From a virus: a DNA stretch of 64,000 nt. The number at the start of each line of letters is the position of its first letter. The stretch's first letter is position 1. Shown in pieces: positions 4,591 through 52,230 of this stretch. The position numbers were made by a program, and so were the translations under genes. The DNA is taken from the IMG/VR virus record IMGVR_UViG_3300017971_004103, positions 12,764 to 76,763 of that record. The stretch is one strand, 5' to 3'. The notes beneath the pieces are model-generated. The model saw only the letters and a program-made list of their open reading frames with translations. It had not been told where the DNA came from and ran no database searches.

Positions 4591-4601
4591 GAACTTAGAT
4601 A

Positions 4602-5522: not shown

Positions 5523-5600
5523 TTTTCCCGAAAATAATGAGTTTTTTTCAGGAACACCTACTTAACAAAACTGTTAATTAGATGTTTTTCATGGAAGGCT

Positions 5601-5750: not shown

Positions 5751-5763
5751 AAGGAGAAAAACA

Positions 5764-6123: not shown

Positions 6124-6149
6124 AATTTGAGTGGAAGAAAAGAAATTAA

Positions 6150-6185
6150 AAGAGCGGCATCTTAATGGGTGCCGCTCTTAATTTA
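6150..6185. terminator. Stem-loop, possible terminator or processing site
   Basis: AAGAGCGGCATC pairs with GGTGCCGCTCTT; only a weak U-tract follows. Confidence 0.5.
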
Positions 6186-6197
6186 TGGGGACAAGGT

Positions 6198-7049
6198 ATG
6201 TTGTCGGTCATAATTCCGTCACGCACAGAAAGATTTTTAGATAATACAATAAGAGATGTTTTGGAAAAAGCCACTGGGAAAATAGAAGTGATACCAGTGC
6301 TTGATGGATATGAACCACCAGAACTCATTGAAGACGAAAGAGTAAAGTATTTAAGCCTTCCAAAATCCCGCAATACCCAAAAGAGACACGGCATTAATAA
6401 GGCAGTTTCTATTTGTAAGGGTGATTATGTGATGAGTCTTGATGCTCATTGCATGATGGATAAAGGATTTGATGAAAAACTAGCTGAGGCTCACCATCCC
6501 AATTGGGTACAAATCCCTCGCCGGAATAGATTGGATGCTGAAAACTGGTGTCTTCAGGATCAATGTGATGATCGTCCCCCGATTGATTATGAATATATTA
6601 TGTTTGCTCCCCTAATTAAAGATCGCTCCATACACGGATTCAAATGGGACAAAAGAACTTTAGATAGATGGGATATTCCCATTGATGATACCGTTGAATT
6701 TCAGGGTTCGTGCTGGTTTATGACCAAAGACTGGTATCACAAAATGGGGTTTATGCAGGTCGAGGGTTATACTGGATGGGGGCAGGAGGCCGAGGAAATA
6801 AGTTTAACTACTTGGAAAAACGGCGGTGAAGTCAAGACAAACAAAACCACTTGGTACGCACATTTGCATAAGGGTAAAAAGTACGGGCGCATGTATTGGA
6901 TGAGTCGGGAAGAGTGCCGTCGCAGTTATGCTTATTCATTTCAGAAATGGCTGATAGAAGAAAAGGAATTTTTTATTAATTTAATTGAGAGATTTTCCCC
7001 CCTCCCACAATGGCCGGAAAACTGGAAAGAAAAGCTGTGGAAACTTTAA
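6198..7049 (+). CDS. GT-A glycosyltransferase with ppGalNAc-transferase-like motifs
   Basis: LSVIIP, LDAHC (DxH), WGQEAEEISLTTWKNGG...WYAHLHK. Start moved to ATG 6198 because the upstream ATG lies inside the hairpin. Confidence 0.85.
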   Translation: MLSVIIPSRTERFLDNTIRDVLEKATGKIEVIPVLDGYEPPELIEDERVKYLSLPKSRNTQKRHGINKAVSICKGDYVMSLDAHCMMDKGFDEKLAEAHHPNWVQIPRRNRLDAENWCLQDQCDDRPPIDYEYIMFAPLIKDRSIHGFKWDKRTLDRWDIPIDDTVEFQGSCWFMTKDWYHKMGFMQVEGYTGWGQEAEEISLTTWKNGGEVKTNKTTWYAHLHKGKKYGRMYWMSREECRRSYAYSFQKWLIEEKEFFINLIERFSPLPQWPENWKEKLWKL

Positions 7050-7648
7050 AATATATTGTTGACAAATATAAAATAGATCTTTCACAACCATCGCCCTTTC
7101 ATCTTCCCATTGGACGATTTAAGGATGTTCCAAGGCTATTTAAAGAGCTTGGCTTTAAGGTTGGGGCTGAGGTGGGAACTTATCAGGGTGAATATGCAAG
7201 GTATCTTTTAAGGTATTGTCCTGGGTTGAAACTTTACGGCATTGATATGTGGAAATCATATAAGGGATATAAGGATTTCGGCGCGAATGATCTAATTGAT
7301 TCCCATCAAATAGCAAAAGAAAGGGTTAAGGGGTATGACTGCGAACTAATCCAGGGATGGAGCAATGAAGTTGTCAAACGAGTTTTAGATGAGAGCTTAG
7401 ACTTTGTTTTTATAGACGGCAATCACGCATATGAATATGTAGTTGAAGATATTGCTAATTGGTCAAAAAAGGTTAGAAGTGGCGGGATTGTCTACGGTCA
7501 TGACTTTGATGATTATACAAATAGAAGAAGATGGAAGCAGATGCACGTTATCCAGGCAGTTGAAGGGTGGGTGAAGTCGTACAAAATCCATCCGTGGTTT
7601 GTGCTGACCAATAACAAAAATAAAACATGGATGTATGTCAAGCCATAG
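7010..7648 (+). CDS. Class I SAM methyltransferase (Methyltransf_24-like)
   Basis: GAEVGTYQG, LDFVFIDGNH.YE.V..DI..W..KV..GG...GHD. True start may be GTG 7037. Confidence 0.85.
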   Translation: MAGKLERKAVETLKYIVDKYKIDLSQPSPFHLPIGRFKDVPRLFKELGFKVGAEVGTYQGEYARYLLRYCPGLKLYGIDMWKSYKGYKDFGANDLIDSHQIAKERVKGYDCELIQGWSNEVVKRVLDESLDFVFIDGNHAYEYVVEDIANWSKKVRSGGIVYGHDFDDYTNRRRWKQMHVIQAVEGWVKSYKIHPWFVLTNNKNKTWMYVKP

Positions 7649-8291
7649 CCTTACCATACTGTACTACACGGCAAATAGAGAAGATGAAAATTTTGCGAGT
7701 AGGATTCGAGAAAACATCCTTAGTGTTTCTGGTGGTTTACCAATTGTAAGTGTCTCACAAAAACCCCTGTGTTTTGGTAAAAATATTTGTGTGGGGATGC
7801 ATGATAATTGTTATCACAATGCTGCCCGCCAGGTGCAAATCGGACTAAGGGCTATAGATACTCCCTATGTAATTGCGGCAAATTCAGACACTCTTTATCC
7901 ACCGGAATATTTTCAATTCAAAATATCTGGAAGGGGGTGGGTTTATAGATACAACAATGTCTGGGTTCACTATACTCAATTTAAGGGACAGCCGAAATTT
8001 TGGTTTAAGGGCGTTAGTCATTGTGCTCAAGTAGTAGATAGAGAATTATGGCTGAAGCGAATTGATAGGGTTATGGATAAACTCCCTAAATGGAGAATTG
8101 ATAAAATCGATAGAATTTCCAGCATACACTTTAAACACTATGAACATATGGCCGCAGACAATCCAGTAATAACATTTAAAACAAGAACTGGGGTCAAATC
8201 TACAACTGCCGTGAAAAGAGGTCACTTACCGAAATATAGTTTGCCCTATTGGGGATCGGCAAAAGCATTGAGAGAAAAAATGTTTCAATGA
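7635..8291 (+). CDS. Divergent GT-A-like protein, paralogue of the C-terminal domain of 8967..10565
   Basis: Shares YYT.NR, LPI.SV, FG.NI.V, Q...GL and D.LY.P..F.F with that domain. Confidence 0.55.
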   Translation: MSSHSLTILYYTANREDENFASRIRENILSVSGGLPIVSVSQKPLCFGKNICVGMHDNCYHNAARQVQIGLRAIDTPYVIAANSDTLYPPEYFQFKISGRGWVYRYNNVWVHYTQFKGQPKFWFKGVSHCAQVVDRELWLKRIDRVMDKLPKWRIDKIDRISSIHFKHYEHMAADNPVITFKTRTGVKSTTAVKRGHLPKYSLPYWGSAKALREKMFQ

Positions 8292-8980
8292 AATTATCAA
8301 TCATAATCTCCGTATATCAAAGCCATGAAATTGTCCGAAGGCAGCTATTACATTTTAAAAAGATAAAATTACCATTTGAATTAATCATCGTTGATGATGG
8401 AAGCAGCCCCCCAATTGAGGGGGCTTTTTGTTGCACAAATAATAAGCTGGCATGGACACAGGGATTGGGCAGGAACCTCGGGGCATCTAAGGCAAGCGGT
8501 GAATATCTTTTTATGACAGATATTGACCACATCATATCGAGAGAAGCTATAGAAGATGCCCTCAATTTTACCGGCAACAAGATGATTTTCAGAAGGCAGA
8601 TTAGGGTTTTAGATGAAGATGGGAATATTAGGCAAGACAAAGAAACCCTAAAAGACTGGGGTTATGAAAAAGATAATTTAGATGCGAGCGTTCACGGCAA
8701 TACTTTTGTAATCAAAAAAGAAGTTTTTGAAAAGCTCGGTGGTTATGCAAGAAGCACTTGTACAATTGGTTATCACCCAGCCCGTCGCAAGGGAGATGAT
8801 TGTTACTTTAACTCTAAGTGGAATCGTACTTATCGAGGAATTAAGCCAGTAGTTGGTTCTGATATCTATATGTTTCCCATAGGTAGATTTCATAAGAATG
8901 GTGATTTAAACCCCAAAGGACTCTTTCACAATTTAAGTCAAACTAAGCAGGAGAAATTTTATAAGAATGCCACAGCTTAG
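8288..8980 (+). CDS. GT2 family glycosyltransferase
   Basis: KLSIIISVY, ELIIVDDGS, RNLGA, TDID (DxD), FEKLGGY; ATGA overlap with the previous gene. Confidence 0.85.
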   Translation: MKLSIIISVYQSHEIVRRQLLHFKKIKLPFELIIVDDGSSPPIEGAFCCTNNKLAWTQGLGRNLGASKASGEYLFMTDIDHIISREAIEDALNFTGNKMIFRRQIRVLDEDGNIRQDKETLKDWGYEKDNLDASVHGNTFVIKKEVFEKLGGYARSTCTIGYHPARRKGDDCYFNSKWNRTYRGIKPVVGSDIYMFPIGRFHKNGDLNPKGLFHNLSQTKQEKFYKNATA

Positions 8981-10565
8981 TGTCATCATCCCATCGAGAA
9001 ATGAGATGTTTCTCAATAACACCATTGAAGACATCTTAAAAAACAGTGAAGCAGATACTGAGATTATTGTGTGTTTAGATGGTCAATGGCCGATTGATCC
9101 GATTAAACAACATCCAAAAGTAAAGATAATATTCTTCCCTGAAAGTATCGGTCAGAGAGCCGCGACAAACAGGGGCGCTCGGATATCAGATGCAAAATAT
9201 CTCATGAAACTAGATGCCCACTGTTCTTTTGCTAAAGGATTTGATCGAGTTCTTTTAGAAGATATTCAAGATGATTGGACTATAGTCCCTCTCATGCGAA
9301 ACCTCCATGCCTTTGATTGGGTATGTAAAAATGGACACCGTAAATATCAAGGGCCGACTCCGGGGAAATGTGGAGAATGTGGCGAGCCCATGAAGCGGGA
9401 AATATTGTGGCGAGCAAAACCAAGTCCCAAAAGTACCTCCTATCGTTTTGACCGTACCCTGCATTTTCAATACTGGGGAGAATACAAAAAGCATCAAAAG
9501 GGTGATCTTGTAGAGACAATGTCATTACAGGGGTCATGCTTTATGATGCGACGTGATCGTTATTTTGATTTAAATATCTGTGATGAGACTTGGGGATCAT
9601 GGGGCAATCAAGGAACGGAAGTTGCGGTAAAATCATGGTTATCGGGTGGTAGAGTAATAGTTGATAAGCGTACTTGGTATGCTCATATGTTTAGGACGCA
9701 GGGTGGGGACTTCGGATTTCCATATCCACAATCAGGCAAAGCAGTTGAACGTGCAAGACAATGTTCCAGGGATTTATTTTTAAATGATAAATGGGATAAA
9801 GCCGTTCATCCCTTTAGCTGGCTGATTAATAAATTTAAGCCACCAGATTGGGAAGATGTGTGGCAAAAAGAACCCGACAAAAAGCCGACATCCCCCACCA
9901 AAGGAATTGTCTACTATACGGATAATCGGCTTAACATGAAGTTGGCCAAATTATGCCGGAACTACATCAAGAAATCTAATCTTCCCATCACATCGGTAAC
10001 CTTAAAGTCAACAGGCTTCGGACATAATATTGTTGTTAAGTCTGAGCCTAGCTATAAGACCATGTTCAAACAGATATTGACCGGTCTTAAAGAAGCCAAA
10101 GAGGACATTATATTTTTATGCGAGCACGATGTCTTATATCATCCGTCTCATTTTGAGTTTACACCAGAGGAAGAAAACACATTTTATTATAACGGATATT
10201 ATTGGATGGTTCGGCTAAAAGACGGCTTTGCTATTAACTATGATGTCAGCCCGCTATCTGGATTAGTCGCCTACAGAGAACCACTCATTACTCATTTCGA
10301 AGAGCGTGTAGCACTAATTGAAAAACAGGGATTCGGTTATTATATGGGATTTGAACCGATGACTCATAAGCGTATCAAGTGGGAGAATTGGTATGACTTT
10401 AAAATATTTAAACCCCAATATCCTAATGTTGATTTAGCACACGAAGGAAATTTAACTAACAAAAGATGGACGCAAAAGAAGTTTATACGAAAACCAAAGT
10501 TTTGGAATGAAGGAAGTATTAATAATATAGAAGGCTGGCCTAATTTGCCAAAATTATTAAGCTAA
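8967..10565 (+). CDS. Two-domain glycosyltransferase (ppGalNAc-T-like domain plus divergent GT-A-like domain)
   Basis: LSVIIPSRNE, LDAHC, WGNQGTEVAVKSWLSGG...WYAHMFR; inserted CxxxH...CxxC Zn-ribbon; second domain with EHD motif. Confidence 0.85.
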   Translation: MPQLSVIIPSRNEMFLNNTIEDILKNSEADTEIIVCLDGQWPIDPIKQHPKVKIIFFPESIGQRAATNRGARISDAKYLMKLDAHCSFAKGFDRVLLEDIQDDWTIVPLMRNLHAFDWVCKNGHRKYQGPTPGKCGECGEPMKREILWRAKPSPKSTSYRFDRTLHFQYWGEYKKHQKGDLVETMSLQGSCFMMRRDRYFDLNICDETWGSWGNQGTEVAVKSWLSGGRVIVDKRTWYAHMFRTQGGDFGFPYPQSGKAVERARQCSRDLFLNDKWDKAVHPFSWLINKFKPPDWEDVWQKEPDKKPTSPTKGIVYYTDNRLNMKLAKLCRNYIKKSNLPITSVTLKSTGFGHNIVVKSEPSYKTMFKQILTGLKEAKEDIIFLCEHDVLYHPSHFEFTPEEENTFYYNGYYWMVRLKDGFAINYDVSPLSGLVAYREPLITHFEERVALIEKQGFGYYMGFEPMTHKRIKWENWYDFKIFKPQYPNVDLAHEGNLTNKRWTQKKFIRKPKFWNEGSINNIEGWPNLPKLLS

Positions 10566-10595
10566 CCCCCTTACGACTATAAGGGGGTTTTTATT
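10564..10595 (+). terminator. Rho-independent terminator
   Basis: AACCCCCTTA / TAAGGGGGTT stem followed by a T-tract. Confidence 0.7.
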
Positions 10596-10605
10596 AGGAA
10601 TAAAG

Positions 10606-13600
10606 ATGACTCGATATACCAATATAGTAATTATGATTTTCTTTTTTTTGTTGATTAGCTGTAGTAATGGCTGGTGTCTTATCAGTAAGACATTAAAATC
10701 ATCTGGGGGAGATTATGCCTCTTGGGAAGAAATGATAACCGATCTTACGACGACCTATAATGCTTTATCAGACGATCTTACCGTTACCGTATCCCCCGCA
10801 AAATATGTAGAAGATACATATGCACCCACCTGTACGATTGATCTAAACGGACATACTGTAATTATAAAGGCCATTGATGGATATGGGCCCCATTCGTCTG
10901 ATGGAAAAACAGGGCCGCAATTTGATTTACAACTCCCAGACTCTGCTCATCATTTTTTATTTCTTGATGCAAAAGATACCGGACAATTTATCGTTGAGGG
11001 ACTTACATTTGATGTAGATGAATCTTCTTCTAGTCCAGCCAATGTTTTTTATTTAGCCAATGATGCTGCATCTGTAGTAACGATTAGAAATTGTGTATTT
11101 AAGGGGCAACAAGATGAGGATGCGATCTATTCCTCTAATATAAACACTACTATCCGCATATACAACAATTTTTTCTATAATTTCTATACCGCCATTACTA
11201 CCCTGTTTCAAGCAACTGATAGTTTTATTGGGAATAATACTATTTATGGATGTGCTCAATATGGAATCAGCCTTTCCAGCAAAGACATTTTAGCCATGAA
11301 TAATCTGGTTTACAATAATGGAACGGATTTTTTATTACCTGGAAGTGCTACTGGATATAATAATCTGTGTAGTGACACTACCTGTGAAGATGGTGATTTT
11401 AGTACTGGCAACGGTAATCAACCATCTAAAACAGTATCTTTTACCTCTACATCTGATGATGAGTATTTCCTTGCATCTGATGAGGTGATAGCAATTGATG
11501 GTGGGACTGTAACTGCGTACGATGATCTAGTCGCTCATTATAGATTTGAAAGAGGATATCTAACAGAAGATAGTAGTGATAATAGTAACACTATAACGGC
11601 AGTAAGTGATCCGGCATCAATTATGTCTGATTACAGGGAAGGTAACGGAGCAATAGATTATGATAGTGATGATTATCATGTAAGGCCTGATGGGGATTTA
11701 AGCGATGATTTTCCTGGCAAACAAGATTCAGCCAATACAGACCTAACAGTATCGCTCTGGATAAGACCCACTGGAAGTGGTAGTAATAATCGAGACCTTA
11801 TTTCGATTGCTGCTGCCGGTACTGAGAACGGTAAAATATGGGCTGTGCGTATTGATGCAAGTGATAAAATATCATTTTTAAAAGGTTACGACAATGGTGC
11901 ATCATGGGAAACAACAACTTATAGTACTGCCCTAACAGAAGGAAGTTCTGCCCCCTGGTATAGAATAGATGTTACCTACGATGAATCAGGGGCAATAGGA
12001 GCAGCAAAGGGCGTTAGAATTAGGGTGTGGGATGATACGGCTAAAGCATGGTTAAGTAGTGATACAACAGCTACTCATGGCAATGCTATGGATACCAGCA
12101 CAACGTATACACCTGACTTTGTAATTAATGCCCTTAAATATAATGGAACTTATTATCCATATGATTGTGAAATGGATGGCATTAGAATTTACAATAGAGC
12201 ATTAACTCCTGACGAATTAGATGAAGCATGGACATTAAATCACGATGCCTTTAATAGACCAAGGGATACATCTCCAGACATCGGTGCTTATGAATATATT
12301 GCGCCAGTTGATTACTATGTTAGTGCAGACAATGGAGATAACAGTAATAATGGAACAAGCACCTCTACTGAATGGGAAGATTTTACTAATGTCGATAGTA
12401 TGATATTCAATCCAGGTGATACGCTTAATCTAGCAATGGATGATGAATGGAATGATACTTTATGGATTACTGCCGTTGGTTCTACTGTAAATGGAAATGG
12501 GGTTACAGTAACAAAATATATTGATGATACAAGCACCACAAATCCTATAATACATGGTACATCCGGTAGTTATGGTATCAATTATAAAACCTCATCTCAT
12601 GTAATAACTGAAAATATAATAGCAGAAAGTTGTAGTTCTCATGGTATTTATGCTGCGAGTGCAAATGATTTAACTTTTACAAATGTAGAATCAAATCGCA
12701 ATGGTGGAGAAGGTGTAGATACAAGTATTTACAGTGGATTTACTTTTTATGCTATCGATAATCTTAATCTTACAAACTGTACTGGTAATTGGAATCATGG
12801 ACATGGCTTTTATCTAGGATATACAAATGATGGAACTTGTAATATTGCTGGATCAACATTTAATTATAATGGTCTTATACATGGAAATAAACAAGGATTT
12901 GGCATTCTAACGAGTTGTTACGCAGATAGTGGATATGATGATATCTTAAATGTAACTAACACAATTGCTAATTATAATGGATATATTGGTATCGGGCCTG
13001 GTACAAACAGTATTATAGATAATTGTACGGCTAATTATAATGGAGATGGTTGGGGAACACAGGGAGTAAAGATATTCTCTGGTACATTAACTGGGAATTT
13101 AGGTGATCTCGATACTGTTACACAAGAAAATACTAATGCTGCAGGAATAGTTCATCACTGCAATTCATCTTATTTTATAAAAGATGGACATAGTATTTGG
13201 TTATCACTATGGGAAGAATCTGGCACTTTTAATGGTACAGATAAAATTGTAAAAGATGTAAGTAATTATTGGGAACCTACTACTGTAATTGATTATGAGC
13301 CTGATTCTGACTGGTCTGGGGGGGGGATGGATTTAAGAAATAGTGATAATACAATAGTTAGGTATTGTTTAGCAATTGGCAATCTTACAGTTTATCATGT
13401 CGGAATAGATGGCTATGGCATTAATATAGATGATGAAACTGATGGGGCAAAGGTTTATTATAGTATAAGTACGTTTAATCGTGGCGCCGGTTTCAAGATA
13501 CATAATTCCGGTAAAGTAGCAATGAATTATTTATATCACTGTCTTTCATATGGAAATAGTGTATCTGTAGCTACTGCTGCTGGTATACATATTGCAGATT

Positions 13601-14582: not shown

Positions 14583-17500
14583 TTGGTGCAGTGGACAATT
14601 GACGATATAAAATTAGGACAGGGGCCATCTGATAGTCCATCTGTTTCACCATCAGTAAGTCCATCTGCTTCAGTATCACCGTCAGCCAGTGAATCGCCTA
14701 GTGTATCCCCCAGTGCGAGCGTTTCTCCTAGCGCGAGTGAATCGCCGAGCATGAGTCCTTCGGCATCTATTAGCCCATCGGCCAGCGAAAGCCCAAGCAT
14801 ATCACCGTCGGCCAGTGAATCTCCGTCAGAATCACCAAGCGTTTCACCGAGTATTTCTCCTTCGGCCTCTGAATCGCCGAGCGTAAGCCCGTCAGCCTCA
14901 GAAAGCCCATCTGTTTCGCCGTCCGCTTCTGTGAGTCCAAGTGCTTCTGAGTCGCCAAGTATATCTCCGAGTACTTCTGAATCACCATCGGAATCACCTT
15001 CAGTTAGCCCTTCCACCTCCATTAGTCCTAGTGTATCACCCTCTGCATCTGTCAGTCCATCTGAAAATTTATTTGATTACAATCAATCATTTGATGAATT
15101 AAATGATGGCGCCATAGATGGTCAGGATGGTTGGACGGAAGACCCCTTCGATAATGGTGCAATTGTTCAAACCAGTGTGGTATTTCATGGTGCAAAGGCA
15201 CTATCTTTTCCTATTGGCGAAGCAGATGATGAGATTATAGCTTATAGGGATTTTGCCGAGTATTTTACTGCTGGTACATTATATTTTGCCATACGTTTTT
15301 CTGATTTTTCTAATTGGGAAACAACTGAATATAGTACTATAGCACCCCTATATAATGATATCGGAAGCCTTATTTCACTTAGACCCGATGGTAATGACTT
15401 AAAAATAAGGGTTGAAGAAACTGGATATGGAACAAGCCATAGCAACTTAATTGAAACTATTTCTAATATTCAAGATAATACTTGGTATGCAATTGGTATA
15501 GAATGGGATATTTCACGCGGTACTAAAGGACAGGCAAGAGTACAGGTAAATTCGGGAGAATGGAGCGATTGGGTAGATTATTATGCAGAAGATTTACAGG
15601 GATTTAATTGCATATATTTGCATTGTGCTACTGGTGCTGGTAGAGGTTGCACTTTTTATTTTGATGAGATAAATTCTGAGGAAATAGAATCTAGTAGTAT
15701 TTCACCCTCGACCAGTGAATCGCCCAGCGTATCTCCTAGTAGTAGTGAAAGTCCATCGGTATCGCCCAGCACGAGCATATCTCCCAGTGAGAGCCCCTCC
15801 GAGAGTCCGAGTTTGTCGCCGTCTTCATCGGAATCTCCCTCTGTTAGTCCAAGTGCTTCGGTATCACCTTCAAGTTCAGAATCACCATCAGTGAGTCCGT
15901 CTACTTCGACCTCACCATCAGAATCACCTAGTATCAGTCCGAGCAGTTCAGCTAGCCCATCGGTATCGCCCAGTGCATCTGTTAGCCCTTCGGCGAGTGA
16001 ATCTCCTAGCGTTTCGCCCTCGACAAGTGAGAGTCCCTCAATAAGTCCGTCGGCTTCTATCAGTCCGAGTATTTCACCGAGTAGTAGCGAATCACCCAGT
16101 ATTTCACCATCTGCCTCCATTTCGCCATCTACCTCGGAAAGTCCCTCAGTATCGCCGTCGAGTTCGGAGAGCCCCTCAGCTTCTCCTAGTGCTAGTATTA
16201 GTCCTAGCACCTCGGAGTCGCCGAGTTTAAGCCCTAGCACAAGTGAGTCTCCATCGGTATCACCTAGTACATCTGAATCACCTAGTGAGTCACCGAGTAG
16301 TTCAGAGTCACCGTCAGTTAGTCCCTCGGCCAGCGTGAGCCCATCAAGTAGCGAGTCACCATCGACCAGTCCCTCAAGTTCCGAGTCACCCTCAATCAGT
16401 CCTAGCACTAGCGAGTCGCCATCAATATCACCGTCAGCAAGTGTATCACCGAGTGAGAGTTCATCAGAATCTTCTTCTCTTAGCCCCAGCGCTTCGGTTA
16501 GTCCGTCAATATCCCCAAGTAGTTCCGAATCGCCGTCATTGTCACCAAGTGCCAGTGTAAGCCCATCGGTAGGGTCGGCATCATTATCACCAAGTTCCAG
16601 TATATCGCCCTCGGTATCACCGAGTGCCTCTTTATCACCATCATCTTCAATTAGTCCGTCAAGCTCCGAGAGCCCGTCGGTGTCTCCATCGAGTTCAGAG
16701 AGTCCGAGTGTCAGTCCATCTTCAAGCGAGAGCCCCAGCGTCAGTCCCAGTGCATCAATTTCACCGAGTATTTCGCCGTCAGCTTCGGTTTCTCCATCAT
16801 CCTCAGAGTCGCCCTCCGTGAGTTCGTCGAGTTCCGAAAGTCCTAGTTTGAGCCCTTCATCATCGGAATCACCCTCGGTCAGTCCATCAGCGAGTGTCAG
16901 TCCCTCAAGTTCGATCAGTCCGTCAGTCTCTCCCTCGGCGTCAGTTAGTCCATCAACCAGTGAGAGCCCGTCGGTATCGCCAAGCGCAAGTGAGTCACCC
17001 AGTAGTAGTGAGTCACTCTCGGTGAGTCCATCGGCCTCTATTTCTCCGAGCAGCTCAGAGAGCCCCAGTGTCTCTCCCTCAGCATCAGAATCGCCAAGCC
17101 CGTCTGAGGGTTCTTCTTCTGAATCACCGTCTGAAAGTCCAAGCGTATCGCCGAGTGCTAGTATCAGTCCGAGTACATCAGAATCTCCATCTGTCAGTCC
17201 CTCGGCCAGCGTGAGCCCTTCAACCTCAATATCACCCTCGGTATCGCCAAGCGCCTCCGAGAGTCCCTCAGTCTCACCCTCGGTCAGTATGAGTCCCTCA
17301 GTCTCACCGAGCGCAAGTGAGTCGCCTTCAATATCACCGTCAAGTTCGGAAAGTCCATCGTTGAGCCCCAGTGCTTCCCTATCTCCATCGGCTAGTGAAA
17401 GCCCATCAGTCTCTCCGTCGGCATCCGTTAGTCCAAGTGCTTCCGTAAGCCCATCATGTGAGCCAGGGGAATATGAAAACCTGACAATCTACGACAAGGT

Positions 17501-18542
17501 AGATGAAGGAAATGATATAACTGTTGAATGCACTAAATCAACCTTCATTAATCTGGATAATTTAGATGAGGCTCATTTATCAAGGGATTTTGGCATAGAC
17601 TATTTTCAAAATTTTAGTATTGATTTTGAAGCTCAGATCACTTCCGTATCAAATGGTTCCGTTGTCGGGTTAATTGGAGTTACAAATTTACCGGAATCGA
17701 TAATGCCATGTGATCATGGGATTTTTGTTGATGTTAATGATGATCGCAAAGTTTATTTGATTGATCGAGACAGTGGATCGGGCATAACCTCTGGTGCTCT
17801 TACATTAAGCACAACTTATTATTTCACGTTTAGGCGAGATGAAAGTACAGCTTATGTAGATATTTACACGGATTCAGACAGAAACAATCTATTTCAAACC
17901 ATATCGCTTGAATGTGAAGCCATTAACTGGCGATATTTACAGGTAACTACATCACAAGAATGGGGATCAACTCCTGATAGGCTATGTTCTGGATGGGTAG
18001 ATCATGTATTAATTAATTATGCCTATAGTCCCTCATCTTCGGAAAGTCCTTCAGTAAGTCCGAGTGCGAGTTTATCGCCGTCAGCATCAGCCTCTCCCTC
18101 GGTGAGTCCTTCGGCATCTATTAGCCCATCGGTCTCCCCGAGTGCGAGCGTTTCTCCGTCGAGTTCGGAGTCGCTGTCGGTCTCACCTTCAGCCTCAGAA
18201 AGTCCGAGTGAGAGTCCTTCGGCCTCAGAATCACCCAGCGTGAGTCCTAGCGCCTCAGAGAGTCCGAGCCTTTCTCCCTCTGCGAGCATAAGCCCGTCGA
18301 GTTCCGAAAGTCCCTCGATAAGTCCCAGTGCATCAATTTCACCGAGTACCTCTGAGAGCCCGAGCATGTCGCCGAGCGCATCAGAATCACCTAGCGTTAG
18401 TCCATCTTCTAGTTTAAGTCCATCGATTTCACCGTCGGTTAGTCCCTCGGCTTCGGTTAGCCCCAGCGTATCACCGAGTGCATATGGTGAATCAAGATAT
18501 AGCTTCAAAAAACACATCAACAAGAGCTTTGAGGTAAAGTAA
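14583..18542 (+). CDS. Mucin-like Ser/Pro-rich repeat protein with two globular (lectin/jelly-roll-like) inserts; putative glycosylated virion fibre
   Basis: AGGTGA RBS plus TTG start; three SPSxS blocks separated by two ~200-aa aromatic-rich beta domains. Confidence 0.8.
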   Translation: MVQWTIDDIKLGQGPSDSPSVSPSVSPSASVSPSASESPSVSPSASVSPSASESPSMSPSASISPSASESPSISPSASESPSESPSVSPSISPSASESPSVSPSASESPSVSPSASVSPSASESPSISPSTSESPSESPSVSPSTSISPSVSPSASVSPSENLFDYNQSFDELNDGAIDGQDGWTEDPFDNGAIVQTSVVFHGAKALSFPIGEADDEIIAYRDFAEYFTAGTLYFAIRFSDFSNWETTEYSTIAPLYNDIGSLISLRPDGNDLKIRVEETGYGTSHSNLIETISNIQDNTWYAIGIEWDISRGTKGQARVQVNSGEWSDWVDYYAEDLQGFNCIYLHCATGAGRGCTFYFDEINSEEIESSSISPSTSESPSVSPSSSESPSVSPSTSISPSESPSESPSLSPSSSESPSVSPSASVSPSSSESPSVSPSTSTSPSESPSISPSSSASPSVSPSASVSPSASESPSVSPSTSESPSISPSASISPSISPSSSESPSISPSASISPSTSESPSVSPSSSESPSASPSASISPSTSESPSLSPSTSESPSVSPSTSESPSESPSSSESPSVSPSASVSPSSSESPSTSPSSSESPSISPSTSESPSISPSASVSPSESSSESSSLSPSASVSPSISPSSSESPSLSPSASVSPSVGSASLSPSSSISPSVSPSASLSPSSSISPSSSESPSVSPSSSESPSVSPSSSESPSVSPSASISPSISPSASVSPSSSESPSVSSSSSESPSLSPSSSESPSVSPSASVSPSSSISPSVSPSASVSPSTSESPSVSPSASESPSSSESLSVSPSASISPSSSESPSVSPSASESPSPSEGSSSESPSESPSVSPSASISPSTSESPSVSPSASVSPSTSISPSVSPSASESPSVSPSVSMSPSVSPSASESPSISPSSSESPSLSPSASLSPSASESPSVSPSASVSPSASVSPSCEPGEYENLTIYDKVDEGNDITVECTKSTFINLDNLDEAHLSRDFGIDYFQNFSIDFEAQITSVSNGSVVGLIGVTNLPESIMPCDHGIFVDVNDDRKVYLIDRDSGSGITSGALTLSTTYYFTFRRDESTAYVDIYTDSDRNNLFQTISLECEAINWRYLQVTTSQEWGSTPDRLCSGWVDHVLINYAYSPSSSESPSVSPSASLSPSASASPSVSPSASISPSVSPSASVSPSSSESLSVSPSASESPSESPSASESPSVSPSASESPSLSPSASISPSSSESPSISPSASISPSTSESPSMSPSASESPSVSPSSSLSPSISPSVSPSASVSPSVSPSAYGESRYSFKKHINKSFEVK
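14628..15062 (+). repeat. Ser-x coding repeat block 1 (SPS[AVIE]S..., ~145 aa)
   Basis: Ser at alternate codons in the translation. Confidence 0.9.
15690..17456 (+). repeat. Ser-x coding repeat block 2 (~589 aa)
   Basis: Ser at alternate codons in the translation. Confidence 0.9.
18027..18479 (+). repeat. Ser-x coding repeat block 3 (~151 aa)
   Basis: Ser at alternate codons in the translation. Confidence 0.9.
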
Positions 18543-31637: not shown

Positions 31638-31714
31638 GGGGACGTAATTCAATTTGGGGGAATACCAGTTTTGCACACTGGAGGTTGAGGGTTCGATTCC
31701 CTCCGTCTCCACCA
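31638..31714 (+). tRNA. tRNA-Ala(UGC)
   Basis: Acceptor GGGGACG/CGTCTCC with G3:U70, anticodon arm CCAGT-TTTGCAC-ACTGG, TTCGA loop, encoded CCA. Confidence 0.92.
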
Positions 31715-31718
31715 TTAT

Positions 31719-31794
31719 TGCGGGGTAGGCAAGTGGTTAAGCCGATGGTCTCATAAGCCATAATTCACGGGTTCGACTCCCGTCCCCGCTACCA
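31719..31794 (+). tRNA. tRNA-Met(CAU), initiator-like
   Basis: TGCGGGG/CCCCGCT with 1:72 mismatch, anticodon loop CTCATAA, GTTCGAC, encoded CCA. Confidence 0.88.
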
Positions 31795-31799
31795 TTTTA

Positions 31800-31873
31800 G
31801 GGGCGTTGGTGTAGCGGGAACATCCCAGACTCCAAACCTGGGGCCGAGGGTTCAAATCCTTCACGCCCTGCCA
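31800..31873 (+). tRNA. tRNA-Trp(CCA)
   Basis: GGGGCGT/ACGCCCT, anticodon loop CTCCAAA, G73, encoded CCA. Confidence 0.88.
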
Positions 31874-45421: not shown

Positions 45422-46411
45422 ATGAGAAAAAAAGCCCTTATAACGGGAATTACGGGAATGGACGGATCAAACCTCGCCGATTTGCTTTTAGGCAAAAATT
45501 ATGAGGTACACGGAATAATTAGGCGATCATCGACCTCAAATACATGGCGGATTGATCATATCCTGGACAGAATAACATTACATGAGGGTGATGTAATGGA
45601 TGGGGCTTCCCTGGTTAAGATAATGGAAAAATGTATGCCTGATGAAATATACCACCTTGCAGCCATGAGTTATGTCGGGGCATCATGGAAAACCCCGATA
45701 TACACATCTGAGTGTACTGGATTAGGCACACTTAAAGTGCTTGAGGCAATGAGACAGGTGTGTGAGGGGGCTAGGTTTTATCATGCAGGATCGTCCGAGC
45801 AATTTGGGAAAGCACAAGAAACCCCACAAAAAGAAACCACCCCATTTTATCCCCGTAGCCCCTATGGGGTGGCTAAATGTTTTGGCTTTGATATGACCCG
45901 GAACTACAGAGAGTCATACGATATGTTTTGTTGTAGCGGTATACTTTTTAACCACGAAGACCAAAGGCGCGGCATTGAATTCGTTACCCGAAAGATCACC
46001 GATGGGGTAGCACAGATAAAATTGGGGTTGCTGGATAAGCTAAAACTCGGCAATCTTGATGCAAAAAGGGATTGGGGTAGTTCGATTGATTATGTAGTTG
46101 CTATGTGGATGATGCTACAAAACGAAAACCCAATTGATTATGTAGTGGCAACTGGCGAGACACATTCTGTCCGTGAATGGTGTGAGGCTGCTTTTTCTCA
46201 TGTAAATTTGGACTACAAAGAATTTGTTGAGCTTGACCCCAGATTTATAAGGCCAGCCGAAGTCGATATTTTAATCGGCGATGCAAGCAAAATTAAAAGG
46301 GAACTAGGCTGGAAGCCAAAAATAGGATTTAAGGAATTGATTCAGCAAATGGTAGATGCCGACATGAAAAGAGTTTGGGATAAGGGGAAATATGATGTTA
46401 AGACTATATGA
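45422..46411 (+). CDS. gmd: GDP-mannose (or GDP-heptose) 4,6-dehydratase
   Basis: [60 protein letters not shown]. Confidence 0.92.
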
Positions 46412-46607
46412 TTTTTCCTGTGTAACGTGCGGTTATACATTCGAGGATATCGTCAGGGCGGAAAACGGGGTTATCGAAGAAATGCCATTATGCCCTAAGT
46501 GCAAAAAAGAAACGGTAAGGGTGCCAAGCGTATGTAATTTTAGGTTTCAGCGAATCAGATTTGATTCAGTCGCTAATCGCTGGGATTATTCGGGCGTGGA
46601 GCAATAA
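46392..46607 (+). CDS. FmdB-like zinc-ribbon protein
   Basis: YDF.C..CG..FE...CPKC. Confidence 0.75.
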
Positions 46608-46632
46608 AAAACCCCGCCTTGTGAGCGGGGCT
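46606..46632 (-). terminator. Terminator of the minus-strand operon
   Basis: CCCCGC / GCGGGG stem with an A-tract on the left (U-tract on the minus strand). Confidence 0.7.
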
Positions 46633-46655
46633 AGCTTGACTTATTTGCTTGTCCT

Positions 46656-47021
46656 TCAGTTTCTTTGACAATTAAAATATTTTTGGCCAGCACGTCCCAT
46701 ATCATCTATATAGATGTGCATAGCCTTGCCGTCGTACTCAGCTATGATTTTGGTGGTGTCGTGGTCATCCATTGCATCTTTCGCAGTTAATTCCCGGCCA
46801 TCAATCTGGTCGCCCTGACTATTGCCTCCAGAGTCGTACCATTGTGAGGCATCTCTATACTCCCAAGTGCCATCAACAATGCCACGTAGATCATCTACGC
46901 CATTAGCATTGTCGGCATATTCTATGCCCGAGATTACGGCTACAATATTATCAAGTGCATCATAACACTCGATTTGCAGTCCTCCACCATTGTTTTCTTT
47001 AACCTGCGCACTTGTTATCAT
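46656..47021 (-). CDS. Acidic hypothetical protein
   Basis: AAGGAG RBS; ENNGGGL motif; Asp/Glu-rich. Confidence 0.7.
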   Translation of the reverse strand: MITSAQVKENNGGGLQIECYDALDNIVAVISGIEYADNANGVDDLRGIVDGTWEYRDASQWYDSGGNSQGDQIDGRELTAKDAMDDHDTTKIIAEYDGKAMHIYIDDMGRAGQKYFNCQRN

Positions 47022-47053
47022 AATTTCTCCTTTCCCTCTAGTGAGGGGTTAGG

Positions 47054-47218
47054 TTATTTATCCTTGTAAAATATTCCAAAGTCTGGGTCGGTTGTGACTG
47101 TAAAAATATCACCATGCTCATCTACTATATCGTCAATAATTGTTGCAAGGTCGGCATCATCGTCAACATCTTCAGTCCACGCATACCCACTATGGGCTGT
47201 AACGGTTATTGTAATCAT
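47054..47218 (-). CDS. 54-aa highly acidic microprotein
   Basis: Own translation: MITITVTAHSGYAWTEDVDDDADLATIIDDIVDEHGDIFTVTTDPDFGIFYKDK; AAGGAG RBS. Confidence 0.6.
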   Translation of the reverse strand: MITITVTAHSGYAWTEDVDDDADLATIIDDIVDEHGDIFTVTTDPDFGIFYKDK

Positions 47219-47245
47219 AATTCATTTCTCCTTTCCCTCTGGGGG

Positions 47246-47437
47246 TTAAAGTTTTTTAAGTTCTTTTTTGGGTCTACCAGTTTTTCTAATTCTAACCATT
47301 TTTAGAAATTTGACATTGATTGCCCAATCCCTACCGAATTTTATTGCGGGCAAGCGGCCAGACAAAATTAATTGTCTGACCCTTGACTGATTTATCTTTA
47401 GGATTTTGGCTGCTTGAGTGGTGTTTATGATTTTCAT
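47246..47437 (-). CDS. Excisionase-type HTH (HTH_17) DNA-binding protein
   Basis: T.QAA..L......VRQLI..GRLPA.K.GR.W.I; GRPKK tail; GAGGA RBS. Confidence 0.85.
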   Translation of the reverse strand: MKIINTTQAAKILKINQSRVRQLILSGRLPAIKFGRDWAINVKFLKMVRIRKTGRPKKELKKL

Positions 47438-47757
47438 GATGTCCTCCTCAAAATTCCGATTTCGCAATTTTTCAAGACAAAATCGGGGGTGAGCTTGCCC
47501 TTGAGGGTGGGGTCAGACATTCGGCAAGTGAGGCGGAAAATTAGAGCTTCATCACCGGATGCCATTTTCACCATTCTTCGATTAGTGGGGATGAGGATTC
47601 CGGTTATTGCCGAGATGGCAGAAGCCGTCTCAGCATAACCGATTGTGCTGTCGAATGTACCAGCACTCAACCATTTTTTGGCCGTCTCAACATCCACTAG
47701 AAAATAATCGTATTTTCCCGGAGATGTGATAACGGCACTATTTAATATATATCTCAT
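47434..47757 (-). CDS. DUF1874/STIV-B116 family protein (AcrIII-1 ring-nuclease-like)
   Basis: YILNS, S.IG[Y]..TA, NR......GDEAL.F.L..R match the family, but the GH histidine is Tyr. Confidence 0.75.
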   Translation of the reverse strand: MRYILNSAVITSPGKYDYFLVDVETAKKWLSAGTFDSTIGYAETASAISAITGILIPTNRRMVKMASGDEALIFRLTCRMSDPTLKGKLTPDFVLKNCEIGILRRTS

Positions 47758-48221
47758 ACTTCGACGGCCTCCTCGCCGTCTAGGAGTACATCATTACCCA
47801 AAGGGATAAATCCATCGGGAGTAAATTTATCATAACGCACCCCATGTCTGCCCTTATAGGTATCATGAGCCAGAATAGATTCACAAGTGACAATCCCGAT
47901 ATTGGATTCAGAATTGCCATAACCCCCACAACTAGAGGCCATGAAAATGGGTTCGGGGGATACGTTTACACCATAACCACCGCCCATGAAAACACCCACC
48001 ACTCCCTCCTTTTTGGGTGGGTTGATGAAAATATAGGAGTGATTGCCCTTTTCGTAATAGGCAACCTCTCCCTCAGTTTGTGTCCACCCCTTATCATTGT
48101 AAGGGATGAACTCACCTTGAAAATCTTTTCCTGATACGATTACCAGGTTGCGCCTCGTGGCGCCATTACTCTTTTCTATTTTTCCCCCTTCATAGGGGAA
48201 ATTAAAATATATTTTACTCAT
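47754..48221 (-). CDS. Hypothetical protein
   Basis: AAGGAG RBS before ATG 48221; ATGA overlap with the next gene. Confidence 0.6.
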   Translation of the reverse strand: MSKIYFNFPYEGGKIEKSNGATRRNLVIVSGKDFQGEFIPYNDKGWTQTEGEVAYYEKGNHSYIFINPPKKEGVVGVFMGGGYGVNVSPEPIFMASSCGGYGNSESNIGIVTCESILAHDTYKGRHGVRYDKFTPDGFIPLGNDVLLDGEEAVEV

Positions 48222-48225
48222 ACAT

Positions 48226-48489
48226 TTACTCCTTTCTCCCGTGCTCATTTTGAGCGCAGGAATGATTCTCAGAAAACAGCCCGCTTGTTTCCCGAGATAA
48301 AATTTCGGCTCTGTGCTCGTACACCCAGCGGGCGTGTTTGCAAACTCTCCCATTACGGGCAGAAGGACACGAACACTTTAGGGACTTAAGTCCCACAAAA
48401 TAAAATTGTCCTGGAAGGGACTCAGACTCAATTGAGACTGTAACCCCATTTTCCAATAGTTCCCAAGATGATGGTACGAATGGTCTCAT
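48226..48489 (-). CDS. SWIM zinc-finger protein
   Basis: CSCP.......CKH; GGAGG RBS. Confidence 0.75.
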   Translation of the reverse strand: MRPFVPSSWELLENGVTVSIESESLPGQFYFVGLKSLKCSCPSARNGRVCKHARWVYEHRAEILSRETSGLFSENHSCAQNEHGRKE

Positions 48490-48743
48490 TTTCCCTCCTT
48501 TTCTAAAAAGGTTAATCTTGCCCGTTTCTCCCACCTACCCAGGCGGGGAAAAGGAACATCTATATCCAATATGGCAGCCCTTCGCACATGCTGTACTTGC
48601 TGCCAAATTCTTAGAAATGTTTCTTCTTCCTTAACCGAGAGAGAAGAAACGATTTTCCCCTTACAACGTATTGCTCCGTCTTTAAGAGAGAAAGTTAAAT
48701 ATCGCCCATCAGGGCAGAAAATTTTTCTGGTGAAAGGTCTCAT
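48486..48743 (-). CDS. Hypothetical protein
   Basis: GGAGG RBS; translationally coupled to its neighbours. Confidence 0.55.
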   Translation of the reverse strand: MRPFTRKIFCPDGRYLTFSLKDGAIRCKGKIVSSLSVKEEETFLRIWQQVQHVRRAAILDIDVPFPRLGRWEKRARLTFLEKEGK

Positions 48744-49093
48744 TAGTCTCCCTCCCTCACCCATTGCCTCATTTCAAAGCGATGGGTACAAGAGTCTACC
48801 AAAGTAGATTCAAAACTAGTTTCTCGCAAGAGTTTTTTCAATCTCTTGCGGGCACGGCTTGGAGTCCGGCCAGCAGCGAGTAAAATACGACGCTCCGGCC
48901 AAATTTCCGACTCATGAAAAGAGCCGTTCCAACCGTTGTCAAACTCTGCCCATTCCGGCAGGTCTCGGTTATCGACTGGTGCAGGAGTATCAATACCCCT
49001 GATAAATGCTACCCACCTATGACTGCGGGTAGCGAAGGAACAATCAAGAAAAAAATGATGCTCCCTAAATTTTTTCAATCTCAATATTTTCAT
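48743..49093 (-). CDS. Hypothetical protein, first gene of the minus-strand operon
   Basis: AAGGGAG RBS before ATG 49093. Confidence 0.6.
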   Translation of the reverse strand: MKILRLKKFREHHFFLDCSFATRSHRWVAFIRGIDTPAPVDNRDLPEWAEFDNGWNGSFHESEIWPERRILLAAGRTPSRARKRLKKLLRETSFESTLVDSCTHRFEMRQWVREGD

Positions 49094-49123
49094 TGGGTCT
49101 CCCTTATAATTAATCTTGATTAT

Positions 49124-49152
49124 AATATAACCCATACGTTATAGTTTGTCAA
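49124..49152 (-). promoter_or_regulatory. Strong sigma70 promoter with overlapping palindromic operator
   Basis: TTGACA-17 nt-TATATT on the minus strand, A/T tract upstream; TATAAC-N6-GTTATA at 49126-49143. Confidence 0.8.
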
Positions 49153-49233: not shown

Positions 49234-50199
49234 ATGAAAAAAGATGTGAAAAAAAAGCTGCTTTATGTTCCGATTGACCAGTTTTCTCATGGGGGAGGCA
49301 GTACATTTTTAATGTCATTGTTACCCTCTGTAGGGCGTAACATCACTCAAGATATAGCTGATGAATGGGATGTTGCCTTAATGATGGGAGCAGAAACCGA
49401 TATTGATACTATTAATAGTATTGTTACAGAAAGAAAAGAACGGGGTGCAAAAATCCTGTTCAGGCTCGACGGAATAAAATATACGAGAATGCCCGAAGGT
49501 ATCGAGCGAATGAAAGCCATGTTTGATATCGCTGATACTGTGGTTTATCAAAGTAATTTTGTAAAATCTGAAGCAGAAAAACTTTGGGGTGAACACAAAA
49601 ATAGCAAAGTAATTTATAACGGTGTTGATTTAGAAAAATTTAAACCCCGAAGACCGGATGATTTTTACAATAGACAACATAGTTTTTTGTACTGTGAATT
49701 TTCCCACAAACTCCACAAGCGAGCACAGGAGGCATTCGGGTTATTTAAAAAGATTATTGGGAAATATCCCAATGCCAAATTAACTATCATTGGTAAATTT
49801 CCCCAGGATTGGGTTAATCAATGTTTCGGATTGCCCCAGGAGAACGTAAAATATTTGTGTCGTATTCCCCATGATGTTATGCCTGGCATTTTGAACAGTC
49901 ACAAGGTTTTATTGTTCCCTTCCGTTGATGAACCTTGCAGTAATTTAGTTTTAGAAGCTATGGCATCGGAAGTTTTGATTATTCACAAAGACAGTGGTTG
50001 TATGCCCGAGCTTTGTGGTGATACTCAGATACTATGGACTGGTGATTTAAATTGCATCGATTCCCTGTATTGCAAATCCCATGATTACCACGCCGGCAGA
50101 TTGCGTGTGCATAAATATTTTTCTAAGTACGAAATGATAAAAAACTATCTGGAGGCATTAGGGGAATATGGAATATCAGGAGTTGTTGAAGAAGGTTGA
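49234..50199 (+). CDS. GT4 glycosyltransferase
   Basis: VYQS.F, VIYNGVDL..F.P, LLFPS..EPC.N.VLEAMA. Confidence 0.88.
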   Translation: MKKDVKKKLLYVPIDQFSHGGGSTFLMSLLPSVGRNITQDIADEWDVALMMGAETDIDTINSIVTERKERGAKILFRLDGIKYTRMPEGIERMKAMFDIADTVVYQSNFVKSEAEKLWGEHKNSKVIYNGVDLEKFKPRRPDDFYNRQHSFLYCEFSHKLHKRAQEAFGLFKKIIGKYPNAKLTIIGKFPQDWVNQCFGLPQENVKYLCRIPHDVMPGILNSHKVLLFPSVDEPCSNLVLEAMASEVLIIHKDSGCMPELCGDTQILWTGDLNCIDSLYCKSHDYHAGRLRVHKYFSKYEMIKNYLEALGEYGISGVVEEG

Positions 50200-51147: not shown

Positions 51148-52230
51148 ATGTATGGAGGAGACAAATATCTCACAATTCAAGAAGAAACTACTCGCGGCGA
51201 GCTTGTAACCGATGCTCCTATTTTTCTTCCGATTGAATCAGATTCACTTAAAGCTGCATTTGTCGAAGAGAAAAATACTGAGTTTCGGGGTGATGTGAGT
51301 ATCAGAACGCAGAAGGAGATTACGAGGATGGCCCAATCCTGGACTGGCAATATCAGTGGTAATTTTTACCCTGAAGGCGGTTCGTCCAAGATTGGAATAG
51401 GGCTATTTTTAAAATACCTTATGGGTTCTGTGAGTACGCTTCAAGTTGGTTCTAGCCCTACGTATCTGCATAACTTTTTAGCTGTGCGTGATCCGTGGTT
51501 AGTATCGGAACTTGGAGACAAGGGTATTTCAATCCATGTCAACAGGCCCACGGTTGGAAGTACGGTTGAGGCATTTCCATTTAGCGGTGGTCGAGTATCG
51601 GGTTTTCATTTGGTACAGGCACCGTCTGCTAACCTGAAATACACGGTTGACTTATTTGGTCAGCGTGCTCATGTCAGGGATACGGCGATCGCCAATCCGA
51701 CCTATAGTACCATAGGAAAGTTTAAGGGTGCTCATTGTGTAGCCTGGGATGGCGTGACGCCGACTGGAACCGGCCCGAACTATACCGGCTTTGCCCAGGG
51801 TGCTGCCAATGCAATTAGTCTGAGAAGTCTAAACATTGATATTACCAATGGTCTTACAGATCAGGTGGTAATCGGAAGCGGTGTTGACTATCCGACTGAA
51901 ACCGACATCGGCATGATTCAGTCAACTATAAGTTTGACTGCGAAGGCTCATGATCCCGCAACTGGATGGAGTTCGATAGACACTTTTGATAAGTGGATTC
52001 AGGACACCGATATCGAACTATTTTTCAAATGGGATAACACCGAAGCCATAGTAGGCAGTCAGAATTACAGTCTGTTTGTTCATTTTCCGGTTCTGCATAT
52101 TACCGATAGCAATATCGATGATGTGCTAGAGGGAGAAAACCTTTTTAGTATGACTGCCGAGGCCCTAGTCAGCACAACCGACGTCTACAGTGTAGGAATA
52201 TTCCTACAGAACAGTTGTGTAACGATCTAA
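51148..52230 (+). CDS. Tail tube (major tail) protein
   Basis: GGAGGT RBS; L...EETT.G, LP..S.SL, Y.H.F, F.G..V; precedes chaperones and tape measure. Confidence 0.8.
   Translation: MYGGDKYLTIQEETTRGELVTDAPIFLPIESDSLKAAFVEEKNTEFRGDVSIRTQKEITRMAQSWTGNISGNFYPEGGSSKIGIGLFLKYLMGSVSTLQVGSSPTYLHNFLAVRDPWLVSELGDKGISIHVNRPTVGSTVEAFPFSGGRVSGFHLVQAPSANLKYTVDLFGQRAHVRDTAIANPTYSTIGKFKGAHCVAWDGVTPTGTGPNYTGFAQGAANAISLRSLNIDITNGLTDQVVIGSGVDYPTETDIGMIQSTISLTAKAHDPATGWSSIDTFDKWIQDTDIELFFKWDNTEAIVGSQNYSLFVHFPVLHITDSNIDDVLEGENLFSMTAEALVSTTDVYSVGIFLQNSCVTI

Follow-up and report, generated by a model that had tools for sequence, protein, structure and literature searches.

The subject of this analysis is a cassette of eight small genes, g1 to g8, on the minus strand of the genome of an uncultured phage from marine sediment. 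The genome is a 76,763-base IMG/VR virus record (IMGVR_UViG_3300017971_004103), estimated to be 91% complete, of which bases 12764-76763 form the window, i.e. the whole stretch of 64,000 nucleotides that was analysed and to which coordinates refer unless another record is named. The cassette is the sole real minus-strand block in the whole 76.7-kb genome. One of its genes, g5, encodes a member of the DUF1874 family, which also includes the anti-CRISPR (Acr) protein AcrIII-1 and Crn2, and carries a tyrosine at the position of the catalytic histidine. An earlier note on this DNA had read the cassette as an early counter-defence island, and how far this reading holds is weighed here.

Anatomy of the minus-strand cassette

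The eight genes, delimited by open reading frame (ORF) listing and start refinement, encode proteins of 54-155 aa, are separated by gaps of 0-32 nt and are all preceded by a GGAG/GAGG-type Shine-Dalgarno site (Table 1). The earlier note had described small coupled genes running from a near-consensus promoter to a terminator of their own, and this description is borne out by an 11/12 promoter, a terminator with a U6 tail and overlapping starts and stops. The overlaps have the form TAATG at the g1/g2 junction and ATGA at g2/g3, g4/g5 and g5/g6, with g3 and g4 separated by 4 nt; as read from these junctions, g1-g6 are translationally coupled. Genes g7 and g8 stand slightly apart, each with its own copy of an identical 17-nt ribosome-binding unit, AGAGGGAAAGGAGAAAT, present as an exact minus-strand repeat at 47023-47039 and 47224-47240, and they look as if they had been added together with a common translation-initiation module. 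The g8 copy is preceded by a 5-bp hairpin, CCCTC/GAGGG (-10.2 kcal/mol, z -2.35).

The promoter has an UP-like A/T tract directly upstream. Matches of at least 11/12 positions occur twice in the genome versus about four expected from Markov-1 simulated genomes, and it is therefore the placement directly upstream of g1, and not rarity, that makes this match convincing, the chance of finding one in a given gap of ~100 nt on the correct strand being ~0.003. At the other end, the terminator lies 24 nt past the g8 stop and 3 nt past the stop of a convergent plus-strand Zn-ribbon gene, and its hairpin is followed by a U tract on the minus strand only, with none on the plus strand. The only Rfam match over the terminator was to Trp_leader and lay below threshold.

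A weak promoter-like site, TTGATT-18-TATAGT, is also seen on the plus strand at 49116-49145. It scores 9/12, which is chance level; it lies across the core of the cassette promoter and points towards the glycosyltransferase gene. If this site were real, two divergent promoters that overlap would allow only one of the two units to be transcribed at a time.

Table 1. Features of the cassette and of its flanks, in window coordinates
Feature	Position	Strand	Description
GDP-mannose 4,6-dehydratase	45422-46411		flank
Zn-ribbon gene	46392-46607	+	flank, convergent with the cassette
Intrinsic terminator	46610-46632	-	9-bp stem with 6 GC pairs, U6 tail, -18.7 kcal/mol
g8	46656-47021	-	121 aa, acidic, isoelectric point (pI) 4.2; AGAGGGAAAGGAGAAAT upstream
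g7	47054-47218	-	54 aa, very acidic, pI 4.05, 14 D/E, orphan; AGAGGGAAAGGAGAAAT upstream
g6	47246-47437	-	63 aa, pI 12, HTH_17/excisionase-type DNA-binding protein; start overlaps g5 stop
g5	47434-47757	-	107 aa, DUF1874/STIV_B116-like (AcrIII-1/Crn2 family), motif STIGYAETA; start overlaps g4 stop
g4	47754-48221	-	155 aa, mildly acidic, pI 5.0, orphan
g3	48226-48489	-	87 aa, SWIM zinc finger CSCPSARNGRVCKH; start overlaps g2 stop
g2	48486-48743	-	85 aa, basic, pI 10.3; start overlaps g1 stop
g1	48743-49093	-	116 aa, basic, pI 9.8
Sigma70-like promoter	49124-49152	-	TTGACA-17-TATATT, 11/12 matches
GT1-family glycosyltransferase	49234-50199		flank on the promoter side
Tail tube	51148-52230		beyond the glycosyltransferase

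The DUF1874 protein g5 and its tyrosine-type clade

The g5 protein matches PF08960 (formerly DUF1874) with an E-value of 7.6e-15 and 55.3 bits against a cut-off of 26 bits. By phmmer and profile matches it aligns with the structures 2j6b, 2j85, 8y7f, 2x4i and 6scf, the alignments with AFV3-109 and with the Csx1-Crn2 fusion running from end to end. It thus shares PF08960 and its length with AcrIII-1 (2X4I/6SCF), Crn2 (as Csx1-Crn2, 8Y6Z/8Y7F), AFV3-109 (2J6B) and STIV B116 (2J85). AcrIII-1 (SIRV1 gp29) and Crn2 degrade cyclic tetra-adenylate (cA4), the second messenger of type III CRISPR systems (bioRxiv 10.1101/778746). The activity that marks such ring nucleases is the conversion of cA4 to A2>P, by which type III CRISPR immunity is relieved.

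Tyr41 of g5 falls on the position of the catalytic His47 in every alignment (AFV3-109, STIV B116, the Csx1-Crn2 fusion and SIRV1 gp29). Together with Glu43, it is invariant in all 43 aligned relatives, drawn from 70 clusters found, the closest homologues being 79% identical to g5. Among the residues by which SIRV1 gp29 contacts cA4, N8 (in the N-terminal LNSA motif), T50, R66 (in the NR motif) and R85 are kept, and g5 has the lid-loop arginine of AcrIII-1 and Crn2. In addition to the exchange of His47 for tyrosine, four contacts differ in the g5 clade, namely Ser11 to Val, Asn13 to Thr, Ser49 to Glu and Gln81 to Arg. Since each of these replacements is invariant across the clade, they point to a conserved, remodelled pocket rather than to decay; K86, E99 and G101 are further invariant positions. 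In a phylogenetic tree, the tyrosine-type (GY) sequences fall together on one side of a branch (ultrafast bootstrap 80, Shimodaira-Hasegawa-like approximate likelihood ratio test 100), apart from SIRV1 gp29, from the GH-type sequence L058 and from a GH-type, YddF-like bacterial group; L061 in this tree is a GH-type row. Among 401 sampled genomes of one phylum, 10 carry DUF1874 genes, of which eight are of the GH type and two of the GY type.

Due to the absence of the defining catalytic residue, g5 is not classed as AcrIII-1; from its sequence, it is a member of the DUF1874 family that may work like AcrIII-1. Another label, that of the assayed ring nuclease family Csx16, was considered and rejected: the PADLOC model PDLC01147, named 'Csx16', matches g5 with an E-value of 2.3e-13, but it also matches Bacillus subtilis carrying the GH-type YddF, so that this call does not separate Csx16 from AcrIII-1/Crn2-like proteins, and no Csx16-type family was found for g5 in the Pfam and NCBIfam scans. 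The same model matches GY-type DUF1874 proteins in general at E-values of 1e-11 to 1e-14.

The genomic neighbourhoods of g5 homologues bear on its possible function. In a contig of a Nitrospira japonica metagenome-assembled genome (DYFC01000059.1, positions 3332-11751 of that contig), a CRISPR accessory locus contains a tyrosine-type DUF1874 gene (7764-8087) whose product is 53% identical to g5. The order is a Csx1-like CARF gene, Cas6, Cas2, Cas1, the DUF1874 gene, a CARF (Cas_NE0113)-sigma54 AAA+ regulator, Card1 and one further CARF/Csa3-like gene; the DUF1874 gene, lying between Cas1 and the sigma54 regulator, by analogy occupies the place expected of a cellular ring nuclease. The remaining genomic loci and every one of the 13 IMG/VR loci have a viral or prophage-like appearance. 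They differ among themselves, their neighbouring genes being those for primase, SNF2, RusA, HNH, terminase and integrases. A viral distribution with occasional CRISPR loci has been published for AcrIII-1/Crn2 (bioRxiv 10.1101/2024.09.24.614671), and the mostly viral or prophage-like occurrence of the clade mirrors it. A recurrent helix-turn-helix (HTH) gene accompanying GY-type genes was not found in the loci examined.

If g5 were to bind a cyclic oligoadenylate (cOA) without cleaving it, it would resemble phage proteins that sequester an immune second messenger. Tad1, Tad2 and Acb2 are such cyclic-nucleotide sponges, to which g5 has no relationship in sequence or fold; the sole basis for the sponge idea is the missing general acid.

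The other genes and the genomic setting

The SWIM, DUF1874 and HTH proteins named in the earlier note are all confirmed by Pfam (g3, g5 and g6). For g3, the match to the SWIM family (PF04434) has an E-value of 4.3e-5 and 23.4 bits against a cut-off of 19.6 bits, and the SWIM signature CxCxnCxH is fitted as C-S-C-x9-C-K-H; relatives of g3 were found in neither INPHARED nor IMG/VR. The g6 protein matches HTH_17 (PF12728, E-value 3.2e-8) and just passes the cut-off of the NCBIfam model TIGR01764 (30 bits against 28.8). Its two relatives in IMG/VR lie in unrelated contexts without Acr genes, one of them facing terminase-like genes. A role of g6 as a working excisionase was set aside, given that a search of the 91%-complete genome turned up neither an integrase nor a resolvase. 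The two acidic proteins of the same note are recognized in g7 and g8, to which the mildly acidic g4 can be added.

Most of the other proteins are isolated in the databases, g1, g2, g3, g4 and g7 being orphans or nearly so. No match to Pfam, PHROG, NCBIfam, PADLOC or PDB sequences was obtained for g1 or g2; g1 has a single homologue (39% identical) among 5.8 billion proteins, and g2 has no relative in IMG/VR. Among the same 5.8 billion proteins g4 matches itself alone, with nothing from Pfam, PHROGs, NCBIfam, PADLOC or the PDB sequence search and nothing usable from the protein Atlas, and its single-sequence AlphaFold2 (AF2) model was discarded as unusable (predicted local distance difference test, pLDDT, 31). 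For g7, PHROG, NCBIfam, PADLOC and PDB sequence searches gave no match. Membrane proteins are absent from the cassette.

The g8 protein founds a small phage and metagenome family of acidic proteins of ~120 aa (homologues P0073-P0088 and L025-L032), with 17 representatives at E<=1e-3 in a library of 1.84 billion proteins and with the conserved motifs VKENNGGGL..IE.Y and MG.AG..YFG. Its AF2 model, computed with an alignment of this family (16 sequences), reaches a pLDDT of 96. No Foldseek match to the PDB at E<=0.001 was obtained for this fold, and the best Z-score in a wide VIA-align comparison (4.6) lies within noise; two full-length look-alikes with a template-modelling score of ~0.6 are found among uncharacterised phage proteins in BFVD. 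PHROG, NCBIfam and PADLOC gave no match for g8, its profile nothing against the PDB, and the protein Atlas nothing usable. A library protein of 568 aa (P0083) matches g8 in six stretches.

The architecture of the cassette can be compared with that of loci encoding Acr and anti-CRISPR-associated (Aca) proteins. Acr-Aca-like loci are defined operationally by genes on the same strand, all encoding fewer than 200 aa, with gaps below 150 bp and one HTH protein (Yi et al. 2019, PMC6739104). All these features are found here, in agreement with the Acr-like architecture proposed in the earlier note. As in Acr-Aca operons, a few small genes follow one another closely on the same strand behind a strong promoter, and they include one HTH gene, acidic ORFs of unknown function and a member of an Acr family. 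Unlike them, the cassette is long (eight genes), its HTH protein is of the HTH_17/excisionase type and is not encoded by the last gene, and its Acr-family member is without the catalytic residue. HTH_17 proteins have been reported beside AcrVA1 homologues in IMG/VR.

The operator of an Aca protein, as known for Aca1 and Aca2, is an inverted repeat overlapping the acr promoter. A repeat search found no convincing operator at the cassette promoter, around which only weak A/T-rich inverted repeats occur (e.g. I16, 16 nt with 81% complementarity and arms 76 nt apart). A link between g6, which is of the HTH_17/excisionase type, and the Aca repressors invoked in the earlier note is not demonstrable; neither this promoter region nor the unrelated contexts of its two relatives points to one.

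In the genome, the cassette splits the glycosylation genes of the late region, as had been noted: GDP-mannose 4,6-dehydratase and the Zn-ribbon gene lie on one side, the GT1-family glycosyltransferase and then the tail tube on the other. GC skew and AT skew both change sign over the cassette only, in line with its coding on the opposite strand. The phage is apparently lytic and siphovirus-like, looking lytic since neither a tyrosine integrase (PF00589) nor a serine recombinase/resolvase (PF00239) was found across the 91%-complete genome. It is only distantly related to known phages, its large terminase (TerL) being at most ~31% identical to that of any deposited phage. Megablast of the cassette DNA against INPHARED gave no match, tblastn searches with the tail tube, g3 (against INPHARED) and g6 gave none either, and no IMG/VR relatives were found for the tail tube, the g8 family, g3 or g2. 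Two relatives of the phage, G001 and G002 (TerL 81% and 59% identical), are fragments that end before the cassette region.

The cassette was recovered in assemblies from two studies, one of a sediment metagenome (2018) and one of seawater/marine sediment (2021), in which the phage appears as a free, near-identical contig of ~76.76 kb; both studies are flagged as possible sources of the DNA analysed here. It is letter-identical in both except for one single-nucleotide polymorphism (SNP) at position 48944 (C to A on the plus strand), which changes GAG to GAT in g1 and results in the conservative replacement E50D; this is the only difference over the 12 kb compared between the two full-length assemblies. 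No contig devoid of the cassette was seen in three DNA runs, one of which (X3) yielded only a few 151-nt pieces. Among the public runs listed as containing the sequence there was no RNA run. No direct repeats pointing to site-specific insertion were found around the cassette, and no paralogy within it or with the remaining genome.

These data bear on two alternative accounts of the cassette. According to the first, it would be a moron that serves the host while the phage is present as a prophage or in a carrier state, when the cassette would be expressed, e.g. as defence cargo for superinfection exclusion. Phage morons lie between late genes with their own promoter and terminator, as exemplified by lambda bor; classical morons consist of one or two genes and belong to temperate phages, whose prophages express them. 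The cassette, too, is an autonomous opposite-strand unit in the late region, with its own promoter and terminator and a GC content slightly above that of the genome, and the excisionase-type HTH of g6 would fit such an origin. On the other hand, it has eight genes and no membrane proteins, the phage is seen as a free contig without a tyrosine integrase or serine recombinase in the 91%-complete record, and PADLOC gives only the DUF1874-like 'Csx16' model and weak HTH matches. A moron is considered quite improbable.

The second account regards the cassette as a remnant, or as a selfish element that hitch-hikes in the genome and now does little. Most of its ORFs would then be evolving fast or have no function, and g5 would be a ring nuclease that has lost its activity. 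The change from histidine to tyrosine requires one base only (TAT versus CAT), and the near-orphan status of five of the genes would be in keeping with this. Yet all 43 relatives, diverse as they are, have Tyr41 and Glu43, which argues for a site under selection and not for a recent lesion. Moreover, all eight frames are open, with Shine-Dalgarno sites and coupled junctions, the family of 16 sequences around g8 yields a model with a pLDDT of 96, a single conservative SNP separates assemblies of two studies, and flanking repeats were not found. This account is the least probable of those considered here.

Two further observations concern other parts of the window. Three neighbouring tRNA genes of the phage are located at 31638-31873 (Ala-TGC, Met-CAT and Trp-CCA). 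A local GC peak of 53% with reversed GC skew is seen at 16001-17000, inside a plus-strand ORF of 1319 aa (14583-18542).

A possible role in blocking cyclic-oligoadenylate signalling

The favoured reading is that the cassette is an early accessory operon, transcribed by the host sigma70 RNA polymerase, in which g5 blocks cOA signalling. It is regarded as a plausible lead, held at slightly less than an even chance, and not as a demonstration. In the proposed mechanism, host sigma70 RNA polymerase would start at the cassette promoter (49152-49124) soon after DNA entry and produce a single message of ~2.5 kb ending at the terminator (46632-46610). The g5 product, the only effector that can be recognised in the cassette and presumably a dimeric DUF1874 protein as judged by homology and by its one relative in a CRISPR locus, would bind cA4 or a related cOA and either cleave it by an altered chemistry, with Tyr41 and Glu43 replacing His47 and Ser49, or sequester it. 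CARF effectors such as Csx1, Can2 and Card1 would thereby be kept inactive. More speculatively, g6 might be a small DNA-binding regulator, possibly autoregulating the operon, and the acidic g4, g7 and g8 and the basic g1 and g2 might be additional host-directed factors, the acidic ones perhaps further inhibitors. The cassette might also be silenced in antisense by late read-through on the plus strand, on which the terminator hairpin has no U tract.

A number of points weigh against this reading. In AcrIII-1, His47 is the general acid; it was described as 'absolutely conserved', its replacement in H47A lowers activity more than 2500-fold, and sequences without it were excluded from the tree of the source paper (bioRxiv 10.1101/778746); g5 has a tyrosine in its place. 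Other activities are on record for DUF1874 proteins, which have been reported to bind DNA and to inhibit a lysine methyltransferase of the host (bioRxiv 10.1101/2023.01.10.523387), and a literature search returned no biochemical data on the tyrosine clade. Of the 16 genomic loci with g5 homologues, most of them outside viral records, a single one is linked to CRISPR. The guilt-by-association check called for by the earlier note came out negative, since no other cassette gene was found beside g5 homologues (13 viral and 16 genomic loci), beside g8 homologues (eight metagenome loci) or beside the two g6 relatives. For seven of the eight genes, nothing connects the product with a known anti-defence protein and, apart from the family of g5 itself, no PHROG anti-defence family or solved structure matches the cassette by sequence, although many anti-defence proteins are among the solved structures. 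The early timing is read from the promoter, scored against a sigma70 consensus that the host may or may not use, just as the host may or may not carry a type III CRISPR system. Finally, composition indicates a foreign origin no more than weakly, the GC content of the cassette being 43.5% versus 39.3% for the genome (z 1.7) with unexceptional tetranucleotide usage. The counter-defence island of the earlier note is thus borne out only in part, by the architecture of the locus and by the membership of g5 in the AcrIII-1/Crn2 family; g5 is without the catalytic histidine and the remaining genes are unlinked to anti-defence.

Several of these points would suit a general early host-takeover or regulatory operon acting on host or phage nucleic acids or on host enzymes. 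Half of the eight proteins are basic or have a nucleic-acid-type domain (g1, g2, the HTH protein g6 and the SWIM protein g3), g5 has no catalytic histidine, and its phage homologues mostly have genes for replication and recombination as neighbours (primase, SNF2, RusA and HNH). The first description of DUF1874 was of a fold that binds DNA, a methyltransferase of the host is inhibited by SIRV2 gp37, and roles beyond Acr activity have been argued for by Martinez-Alvarez (bioRxiv 10.1101/2023.01.10.523387). Against a takeover operon, the pocket of the tyrosine clade retains the residues contacting phosphate and ribose in the cA4 site, a member of the clade is encoded at a CRISPR accessory locus beside cA4-responsive effectors, and a separate strong promoter and a terminator on the opposite strand are typical of optional cargo and not of core regulators. 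Such an operon is held to be somewhat unlikely, though it is the most probable of the alternatives.

As to the timing assumed for the cOA-blocking operon, SIRV2 gp37 was reported to be expressed as a middle/late gene and to lack Acr activity in its native setting (bioRxiv 10.1101/2023.01.10.523387). With g5 under the control of a strong promoter of the host type, the objection raised in that case is answered, for the cassette provides a tyrosine-type DUF1874 gene with the expression context said to be missing for gp37.

A bolder version of the island proposal is judged unlikely. Here, the cassette would be an early multi-inhibitor island in which g5 represents a new functional class (a cOA sponge, a Tyr/Glu enzyme or a protein with a different ligand range) and at least one acidic protein is a new inhibitor of a bacterial defence system, most likely g8, whose confident fold matches no solved structure, or else g7. 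The cassette itself is of an ordinary phage cargo type. If the counter-defence island proves true, it would provide a compact set of candidate inhibitors from an unexplored phage lineage. Beyond this phage, the tyrosine clade is large (70 clusters) and is found not only in phages but at one or more CRISPR accessory loci as well; whether its members cleave, sequester or ignore cA4 bears on the trust that can be placed in annotations equating DUF1874 with AcrIII-1.

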